From an uncultured Acidobacteriota bacterium (GTDB lineage: Bacteria > Acidobacteriota > Polarisedimenticolia > J045): a stretch of DNA of 64,000 bases. The stretch spans positions 15,007 to 79,006 of the forward strand of contig CAZOTT010000001.1 in NCBI GenBank assembly GCA_964582785.1, in the 5' to 3' direction. A program made the translations under genes and the position numbers. Positions within the stretch are counted from its first letter, which is position 1, and every line of letters starts with the position of its first letter. Positions 50,883 through 52,713 of this stretch are shown piece by piece. The notes under the pieces were generated by a model, which had not been told where the DNA came from, ran no database searches, and saw only the letters and a program-made list of their open reading frames with translations.

Positions 50883-52046
50883 TCAGGAGAAAGCCGGCAG
50901 GCCGGCGAAGGGATCGGAAAGCCCCCGGAGATCGGCCCCGATTCCGCGGACCAGGATCTCCACCTCGAAACGCCTCCCCGGCCCGGGCAGCACGAGGGAA
51001 CGGGCCGCGAGGGACCGGGCGAGGCGGCCGGTGTCGTCCCGGTCGGCGGGGGCGATCATGTCTTCCAGGATCCCCAGGGCGAGCAGGAACCGGTCCTGGG
51101 TGGTCCGGCCGGCGACCTCCAGGCCCGCGTCCCGCGCCGCATCCTCGAGGTGATCCCAGTTGACGTGGGCGGTCAGGTCCTGTTCCCCCGGCCGGGCGAG
51201 CAGGTCGTCCGTGACCCGGTGCCGGTGGTAGGCGAGGAGCGTCCCCTCCCGGTGGCGTTCGTCCCCGAGGACCGCCGCCGGGTGGCCGTAGTCGATGAAG
51301 ATCGCCGCCCCGGCCGCGAGGACCCGGGACACCTCCGCCACCAGCCGGCCGAGGGCCGGGCAGACCTCCCCCAGGTCCCCGGCCCGGGGAACGACCCCGT
51401 ACTGCTCGGCCAGGATGCGGACGGCGGGATCGGTGACCGGTCCGTCGCGGAACACCAGCTTCCCCGTCCCGTCCACGGCCACCCACCGTTCCCCGATCCC
51501 CTGCGCGGTCCGGACGACCAGGTGAACGGGCAGGGCGTCGAGCACCTCGTTCCCGCAGAGAACCCCGCGCACGCCCTGCCGGGGCAGCTCGGCCAGGGAC
51601 TCGATCCAGCGCCGCCGCACCCCCGGGAAACGGTCCCTCAGCCGCTCCCGCTGGACCTCCCGGAGGGAGGGGGACGGCTCGACCAGGACCAGCTCGGCCA
51701 GGTCCCGGAAGGCGTCCGGGAACCGGGTGGCCAGCCCCTCCAGCATGTCGGCCGCCATCAGGCCCCGCCCCGGCCCCAGCTCGACGAGGCGCCAGGAGCC
51801 GCCCCCGAGCCGCTCGTGGATCTCCGCCGCCTGGACGGCCAGGCGGCGCCCGAAGTCCGGGGACACGTCGGGCATCGTGGAGAAATCCCCCGCCGGCCCG
51901 GTGGTCGCTCCCGGGCGGGAGTAGTACCCCCCCTCCGGGTGGTAGAGGGCGAGTTCCATGAACTCGACGAACGGAATCGCCCCGCGCCGGGCGATCCGGC
52001 GCAGGATCTCGGCCGCGGCTGGATTCCGGGCCAGGTCCTCGCTCAC
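50883..52046 (-). CDS. MidA/NDUFAF7-family SAM-dependent methyltransferase (DUF185).
   Basis: ...FVEFMELALYHPEGGYYS...LVELGPGRGLMAADML...GVLCGNEVLDALPVH.... Confidence 0.7.
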   Translation of the reverse strand: MSEDLARNPAAAEILRRIARRGAIPFVEFMELALYHPEGGYYSRPGATTGPAGDFSTMPDVSPDFGRRLAVQAAEIHERLGGGSWRLVELGPGRGLMAADMLEGLATRFPDAFRDLAELVLVEPSPSLREVQRERLRDRFPGVRRRWIESLAELPRQGVRGVLCGNEVLDALPVHLVVRTAQGIGERWVAVDGTGKLVFRDGPVTDPAVRILAEQYGVVPRAGDLGEVCPALGRLVAEVSRVLAAGAAIFIDYGHPAAVLGDERHREGTLLAYHRHRVTDDLLARPGEQDLTAHVNWDHLEDAARDAGLEVAGRTTQDRFLLALGILEDMIAPADRDDTGRLARSLAARSLVLPGPGRRFEVEILVRGIGADLRGLSDPFAGLPAFS

Positions 52047-52056
52047 GGCCCGGCGA

Positions 52057-52713
52057 TCAGGTGCGCCCGTACCGGCGGGCCGTCACGTCCGGGTGCCCCG
52101 GCAGCCGGCGGCGCGGGTAGGACGGGGCGGCGTACGTCCACGGGTTCTGGGCGGTATGGCCGGGCGGAGCCACCTCGACCGGGTCTGCCCCCCCCTTCTC
52201 CCGGGCCTGCTTCCAGCGCTCGAGGGCGGACGCCTCGCCCTTCATGATCTTCTTCTGGAGCAGGATCAGGGCGTCGAAGATCGCTTCCGGGCGCGGGGGG
52301 CACCCGGAGACGTAGACGTCGACCGGGATGATCTCGTCGACTCCCTGCACGGTGGAGTAGGAGTTCATCATCCCGCCGGAACTGGCGCAGGCGCCGATCG
52401 CGACCGCCCACTTCGGCTCCGGCATCTGGTCGTACAGCTTCCGCACGGCGGGCGCCATCTTCTTGCTGACGGTCCCGGCCACGAGCATCAGGTCGGCCTG
52501 GCGGGGCGAGAACCGCAGGGCCTCCGCCCCGAAGCGGGCCTGGTCGAAGCGGGAGGCGACGGCGGCCATCATCTCGATCGCGCAGCAGGCCAGGCCCATC
52601 GGGAAGGGCCACAGCGAGTTCTTCCGCCCCCAGTCGACCAGGGCGGAGAGGCGGGTGGTGACGACCCCTTCCTCCAGGTTCCTGATCGTGTACGGGTTGA
52701 CGTAGGCCTTCAC
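52057..52713 (-). CDS. nuoB: NuoB-like protein (complex I 20-kDa/PSST subunit homologue) with a C-terminal extension of about 50 aa. Not embedded in a nuo operon.
   Basis: GTG start with RBS GGAGGAAG. ...[22 protein letters not shown]...[19 protein letters not shown]...[10 protein letters not shown]...[14 protein letters not shown] closely matches E. coli NuoB. Confidence 0.8.

Follow-up and report, generated by a model that had tools for sequence, protein, structure and literature searches.

Why should a gene for NuoB, the subunit that binds iron-sulphur (Fe-S) cluster N2 of respiratory complex I, be separated from the remaining genes of the complex and lie immediately ahead of a gene for a methyltransferase? 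The question is raised by a 64-kb stretch of DNA from an uncultured Acidobacteriota bacterium of the Polarisedimenticolia (contig CAZOTT010000001.1, positions 15,007 to 79,006), hereafter the window, whose minus strand encodes a complex-I-type NuoB/PSST protein of 218 amino acids (aa) (nuoB, 52057..52713) followed by a MidA/NDUFAF7-family (PF02636, COG1565) S-adenosylmethionine (SAM)-dependent methyltransferase of 387 aa (midA, 50883..52046). A spacer of only 10 nt (52047..52056) separates the nuoB stop codon (TGA, 52057-52059) from the midA start (GTG at 52046). An original prediction made from the letters alone had picked out both reading frames with these same boundaries, along with the short spacer and the solitary state of nuoB, and all of these features stand; tblastn searches with NuoA, C, D and E-N reference proteins from other loci found no further nuo gene in the window. 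At this locus nuoB lacks the usual context of a NuoB gene, a place within a nuo operon beside nuoA and nuoC/D. The explanation to which we lean, with a little more than even confidence, is that a nuoB-midA operon ties production of the N2 subunit to the methylation of an arginine of NuoD by MidA while the Q module is assembled, which would most likely make it a bacterial counterpart of the mitochondrial NDUFAF7/NDUFS2/NDUFS7 step.

Judged by its sequence, the core of the protein is clearly that of a canonical, complex-I-type NuoB. It scores well above the cutoffs of Pfam PF01058 (2.5e-28, 98.8 bits, cutoff 27), the NCBIfam NuoB subfamily model NF005012 (236.6 bits, cutoff 116) and TIGR01957 (225.4 bits, cutoff 142.7). 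An alignment of 60 sequences shows no variation at the cluster N2 ligands Cys43, Cys44, Cys109 and Cys138, with the cysteine motifs readable in the sequence as an 18-residue segment and as GCPPRPE, and the quinone-site loop LRFSPRQAD is kept. Moreover, of the 65 sites whose conservation reaches 90% or more among 32 operon-encoded NuoBs, the protein retains 53, and the only fixed differences between operon-encoded NuoBs and the tail-bearing type described below are F39M and I77L. The proposal of a complete NuoB with all four N2 cysteines is thus borne out, whereas the accompanying suggestion that the protein might belong to an Ech/Mbh-like hydrogenase is not. Among solved complex I chains it matches Thermus thermophilus Nqo6 with 213 bits, Escherichia coli NuoB with 201 and NDUFS7 with about 178, compared with 112 bits for Mbs, 103 for MbhJ and 85 for HycG among hydrogenase-type and related chains. 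The NCBIfam hydrogenase models reach at most 35 bits, and no hydrogenase genes were found near nuoB. We rejected an Ech/Mbh/Hyc-type hydrogenase small subunit on the low MbhJ, HycG and NCBIfam scores relative to the complex I chains.

The assignment of the downstream gene to the MidA/DUF185 family is equally well supported by a full-length match to PF02636 (1.9e-58, 198.3 bits, cutoff 23.3, profile positions 2-247 of 249). Structures matched by the protein include 4F3N (178 bits), the alpha-proteobacterial homologue 1ZKD (139 bits) and Dictyostelium MidA, 5ZTZ (70 bits, E = 1.9e-18), and the positions of 4F3N and 1ZKD that align with its motifs VELGPGRG, GNEVLDALPV, FIDYG and LTAHVNWD hold the same residues or similar ones. 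A role for bacterial MidA in complex I was inferred in silico by Shahul Hameed 2018, as that work is cited in PMC9006661. Comparison of the window with its close relative L095 (9527-13978) gave 94% identity for NuoB, 95% for the acyl-CoA dehydrogenase (ACAD) and 95% for the FabI that are encoded further downstream, and 83% for MidA, which is evolving markedly faster than its neighbours.

The pairing of the two genes proved to be strictly conserved. The nearest homologues of both NuoB and MidA belong to Acidobacteriota metagenome-assembled genomes (MAGs), many of them on contigs of matching length, and midA is the next gene after nuoB in 23 of 23 informative related loci, or 22 if the duplicate L002/L003 is counted once. 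These loci are L001, which is the complete genome CP070706.1 (4,111,298 bp), L002/L003, L084 and L085 (both Polarisedimenticolia, where nuoB is there although the gene table does not list it), L087 (a nearest outgroup, with a shorter NuoB tail), L089, L091, L092, L093-L105 and L107. Fifteen JGI contigs were retrieved by tail-only alignment; midA follows nuoB in 14, and the fifteenth, L106, ends at nuoB and is uninformative. In most loci the gap between the two genes is -4 to +20 nt, while the flanks of the pair vary both upstream (rpoH-like, PIN, DUF481 or Rieske genes) and downstream (ACAD-fabI, M20 peptidase, dodecin or GGDEF genes). Conservation of the gene order in related genomes, the check that had been proposed for this locus, therefore came out in favour of the pair, which is kept as its surroundings change. 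The order is preserved at MidA identities down to 43-44% and full-length NuoB identities of 73-79% across the tail-bearing clade, and the short-tailed outgroup L087 shares about 69% NuoB identity over the aligned region. From spacing and gene order, then, nuoB and midA are most likely an operon of two genes, shared by a deep Acidobacteriota clade to which the Polarisedimenticolia belong along with relatives sampled alongside Thermoanaerobaculia.

Linkage of midA to nuo genes is not confined to this clade. We drew 80 NuoB loci from GTDB species genomes by a whole-NuoB scan. The ubiquitous ACCAIEMM motif filled the 600 matches listed, so that close relatives of the window are absent, but the loci serve as an unbiased sample of NuoB. 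Three of them (L028, L052 and L004) have midA within 2 kb. The Nitrospiraceae locus L028 reads midA-nuoA-B-CD-E-...-L, and the Thermoanaerobaculia-type locus L052 reads midA-nuoABCDHIJKLMN, an arrangement repeated in another Thermoanaerobaculia MAG, STL-ACI12 (L088), where ATP synthase genes come next. In L004, an Acidobacteriota MAG (8893-11673), a nuoB of 159 aa, a nuoI-like 2x[4Fe-4S] gene, a second nuoB of 181 aa, midA and a Rieske protein gene stand in a row; no other nuo gene lies within 10 kb, and the two NuoBs fall on different branches of the NuoB tree. In Ca. Actinomarinales, NDUFAF7 follows an 11-subunit nuo operon (bioRxiv 10.1101/2021.02.01.429150). Across three phyla, midA thus adjoins nuo genes in no fewer than four distinct arrangements. 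This recurrence bears on the simplest alternative, namely that the adjacency is meaningless and that a midA with an unrelated substrate became caught beside an ancestral nuoB and has stayed through operon inertia. For bacterial MidA, a function has been assigned in silico only and never tested by experiment (PMC12455994), and the MidA homologues of L086 and of the Chloroflexia locus L090 (40-41% identity) have no nuo neighbour, both of which leave room for such an account. Nevertheless, inertia would have to explain a pair that persists at large sequence distances although both flanks have been replaced again and again, as well as the several separate arrangements just described, and we consider it very improbable.

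What MidA would act upon is suggested by the mitochondrial system. Symmetric dimethylation is found at Arg85 of bovine NDUFS2 and recurs in Pichia and in Nqo4 of Paracoccus, and T. thermophilus has Thr at this position (PMC3750175); NDUFAF7 is the methylase of NDUFS2 Arg85 (PMC3829151). Among the 32 NuoDs encoded in the fetched loci, the position equivalent to bovine Arg85, within the motif G-x-x-H-X-G-x-E-K, is Thr in 24 and Arg in 8, and all NuoDs of the midA-linked operons L028, L052 and L088 are of the Arg type (HRG). Similarly, a neighbour-joining (NJ) tree of NuoB places the window clade and every other midA-linked NuoB among NuoBs that accompany Arg-type NuoDs, and the roughly 53 NuoB loci in the Thr-type half of the tree have no midA within 10 kb. 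By hand calculation, the chance that 3/3 midA-adjacent loci would fall in the Arg-type half (~27/80) is ~0.04.

These observations can be accommodated by a mechanism in which NuoB is a functional complex-I-type N2 subunit and MidA is the bacterial counterpart of NDUFAF7. MidA would dimethylate the Arg of the NuoD motif G-x-x-H-R-G-x-E-K, which lies beside cluster N2, before or while NuoD joins NuoB, and co-transcription together with translational coupling would deliver the methylase along with the very subunit, NuoB, that docks onto methylated NuoD. The NDUFAF7-like interpretation put forward in the original prediction survives in this form: the linkage, the independent midA-nuo operons and the HRG arginine all fit an NDUFAF7/NDUFS2/NDUFS7 relationship, and the part that invoked an Ech/Mbh hydrogenase module falls away.

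Several points weigh against this explanation. In the pair itself, midA adjoins nuoB and not nuoD, the gene of its presumed substrate, and neither nuoD nor any other nuo gene was found near the pair, either in the window or within 8-10 kb in any locus of the clade; the partner complex of this NuoB is thus an assumption on our part. A search with the L052 NuoD returned, among the best 120 matches listed, only Thermoanaerobaculia NuoDs of at least 81% identity, and none of these was matched to a contig bearing the pair. The association between midA and Arg-type NuoD is suggestive and draws on few independent events, and midA-nuo linkage, as the MidA homologues of L086 and L090 illustrate, is recurrent and lineage-restricted, not universal. 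Finally, E. coli NuoD has the Arg and, to our knowledge, no reported modification of it, so that Arg alone is not proof of methylation.

One further feature sets the NuoB of this clade apart. The part homologous to NuoB/PSST chains of known structure stops near residue 160, and no NuoB in the Protein Data Bank (PDB) aligns past residue ~172; the protein ends in a clade-specific C-terminal tail of about 58-60 aa (approximately residues 159-218; 52060..52239, minus strand), somewhat more than the ~50 aa first estimated. The tail occurs throughout the clade with the consensus GEPSALDRWK..GGA.PV..AP.G.TAQNP.TYAS..YPRP.LP..P....A..FRRY, and 16 of its columns are invariant in 30 tails, so that at the level of sequence it reads as a conserved clade signature. 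An AlphaFold2 (AF2) model of NuoB (pLDDT 62.6) has one confident helix at 163-173 and low confidence over the rest of the tail, as would be expected if this segment took on order only in contact with partner subunits. The best available analogue is the C-terminal extension of E. coli NuoB (residues 196-220), which stretches out along NuoI, NuoD and NuoF and lends stability to the peripheral arm (PMC8357420). Both are lineage-specific, extended and mostly unstructured C-terminal segments; they share no sequence similarity, however, and the tail considered here is longer (~58 aa) and its contacts are only proposed. By analogy, it probably lies across neighbouring subunits of the peripheral arm.

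The tail also invites the idea that MidA acts on NuoB and not on NuoD, either by methylating an invariant tail arginine (in DRWK, in YPR, or in the C-terminal R-Y/F) or by docking onto the tail. Tail and midA co-occur strictly in every tail-type locus, midA stands next to nuoB rather than nuoD, and the invariant arginines lie in a segment that is predicted to be disordered and hence accessible. On the other hand, no substrate of the family has been characterised other than the HRG arginine of NDUFS2 (PMC3829151), whereas the tail has no RG motif, and midA is linked to tail-less NuoBs as well (181 aa in L004, 160 aa in L052 and L088, and that of L028). We therefore view this alternative as improbable.

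A more serious competitor, which we nonetheless hold to be appreciably less likely than methylation of NuoD coupled to NuoB supply, is that the tail-bearing NuoB is an extra paralogue. According to this proposal, it would be an alternative N2 subunit for complex I or the subunit of a second complex-I-like enzyme, MidA would be its dedicated maturation partner, and a housekeeping nuo operon with its own nuoB would lie elsewhere in the genome; given the frequent rpoH-like neighbour, the alternative NuoB might even be condition-specific. Precedents for multiple or detached nuoB genes exist: the MAG STL-ACI12 has one NuoB in an 11-subunit operon (L088) and another in a nuoB-nuoCD-nuoI module (L051), L004 carries two nuoB genes close together, and in L034 a solitary nuoB lies 7 kb away from a cluster of nuoABCD. 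The NJ tree also has a long stem branch leading to the tail clade, and tail-clade NuoBs are 75-79% identical at ~56% MidA identity, compared with 89% for operon NuoBs at equal MidA divergence. Against a specialised isoform, the core keeps nearly all canonical constraints with just the two conservative fixed changes, and a second nuoB was not seen in any locus of the clade. Moreover, in the Terriglobales, also Acidobacteriota, solitary nuoB genes are common without implying a special isoform, with nuoB away from nuoA/C/D in more than 25 loci. They resemble the window in this separation of nuoB from its usual partners and differ from it in that their nuoB has neither a midA neighbour nor a conserved long tail, and in that their NuoBs group with those of Thr-type NuoDs.

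The surroundings of solitary nuoB genes in other lineages yielded some separate observations. At L051 9911-12900 and L031 9959-14576, nuoB-nuoCD(fused)-[nuoG-like]-nuoI forms a compact module that has no genes for membrane subunits in its vicinity; its NuoB has GTACCAIEF in place of a ten-residue motif, and its NuoCD has HRC or HRN at the Arg85 motif. The L051 module and the midA-nuoA..N operon of L088 belong to one MAG. In L024, L011, L046 and L059, genes for a GCV_T-family folate-binding protein and an MBL-fold hydrolase lie 0.4-3 kb downstream of a solitary nuoB. Two Fe-S cluster maturation factors, YgfZ and IBA57, belong to the folate-binding family. Solitary nuoB genes of Acidobacteriaceae have OmpA-like and BNR-repeat proteins as neighbours.

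The window itself has a G+C content of ~73%, and the minus-strand gene order around the pair is GT9 glycosyltransferase, TPR protein, NUDIX hydrolase, PD-(D/E)XK nuclease, RpoH-like sigma factor, nuoB, midA, ACAD, fabI and C25 peptidase. The open reading frame (ORF) of the RpoH-like sigma factor, directly upstream of nuoB, spans 52784-54781 on the minus strand; because sigma-70 profiles match only its C-terminal ~290 residues, its true start is probably near 53.7 kb. In the 70-nt gap between this gene and nuoB lies a candidate promoter of sigma-70-like form (TTGACA-18 nt-TACGAT, 52758..52787, minus strand), a consensus match that is the sole promoter-like hit in 48000-54200 (6.2 kb, where shuffled sequences lead one to expect 0.1), and a GGAGGA ribosome-binding site lies just 5' of the GTG start. 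The block 52784-59827 (minus strand), which comprises the GT9 glycosyltransferase, a methyltransferase and the TPR, NUDIX, PD-(D/E)XK nuclease and RpoH-like genes, is syntenic in L084, L085 and L089 and absent from L002, L087 and L092. Downstream of midA, also on the minus strand, are an acyl-CoA dehydrogenase with an ACAD9/ACADV C-terminal domain (49077-50810), fabI (48265-49047) and a secreted-type C25 (gingipain) peptidase protein of 1508 aa with propeptide, P-domain, CARDB and MAM-like domains (43695-48221). ACAD9 is a mitochondrial complex I assembly factor. An ACAD gene directly follows midA in the window and in L002/L003, L092, L095, L099, L100 and L105, and does not do so in L001, L084, L085, L087, L089, L091 and L104. 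With the gene in this position in only about half of the loci, and with ACAD9 not known other than as an animal-specific duplicate of VLCAD, we rejected the ACAD9 analogy as a functional link, and its place next to midA is probably a coincidence.

Far from the pair, the window holds a porin-cytochrome type cluster (2327-17918) that looks like an extracellular electron-transfer system. It consists of an MtrB/PioB-like outer-membrane porin (2327-4186, minus strand) and multihaem c-type cytochromes at 4098-5321 (minus strand) and, on the plus strand, at 5379-7595 (fused to a cytochrome b561 domain), 8432-8863 and 15012-17918.

The components described here and the general idea that joins them are already known, and the adjacency of midA to nuo genes had been mentioned once; what is new is the strict two-gene operon, the relocation of nuoB and the conserved tail. 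The families involved, a PF02636 methyltransferase, NuoD/NDUFS2 and NuoB/NDUFS7, are those of mitochondrial Q-module assembly, and to this likeness can be added the alignment of MidA with its Dictyostelium namesake and the HRG of NuoD in midA-linked bacterial operons. Unlike in mitochondria, the link in this case is a genomic one, an operon with nuoB in Acidobacteriota known from genes alone, and the substrate gene is not adjacent. We know of no report of midA in an operon with nuo genes in alpha-proteobacteria, and the lineage studied here, in contrast to that of 1ZKD, lies outside the Proteobacteria. The complex I of Paracoccus denitrificans offers a bacterial comparison, with an Arg-type NuoD (the dimethyl-Arg of Nqo4; PMC3750175) and a MidA homologue in the genome. 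Also comparable are the operons of the Actinomarinales and those of the Thermoanaerobaculia loci L052 and L088, which share the physical linkage of midA to complex I genes; there, however, midA accompanies a whole nuoABCDHIJKLMN set with a tail-less NuoB of 160 aa, whereas in the window nuoB alone is linked and bears a tail.

A bolder generalisation, which we regard as doubtful, is that a pre-mitochondrial rule is at work, whereby complex I lineages with an Arg-type NuoD require methylation by MidA before NuoB docks, and this clade has hard-wired the step by moving nuoB from the nuo operon to the side of midA, with the tail serving as a MidA-dependent docking or checkpoint element or being methylated itself. 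If true, it would mean that arginine methylation as a part of complex I assembly arose outside the Proteobacteria. Apart from any such rule, the pair, together with the midA genes ahead of whole nuo operons in Thermoanaerobaculia and Nitrospiraceae, provides independent comparative-genomic evidence that a MidA-complex I relationship exists in free-living bacteria remote from the alpha-proteobacteria that gave rise to mitochondria. The link thus seems to predate mitochondria, or at least to reach well beyond them. The locus also defines a tail-bearing NuoB subfamily whose extension, like that of E. coli, may stabilise the peripheral arm, and the pair, together with the split between Arg- and Thr-type NuoDs, makes for a simple, testable system in which to study the function of MidA.

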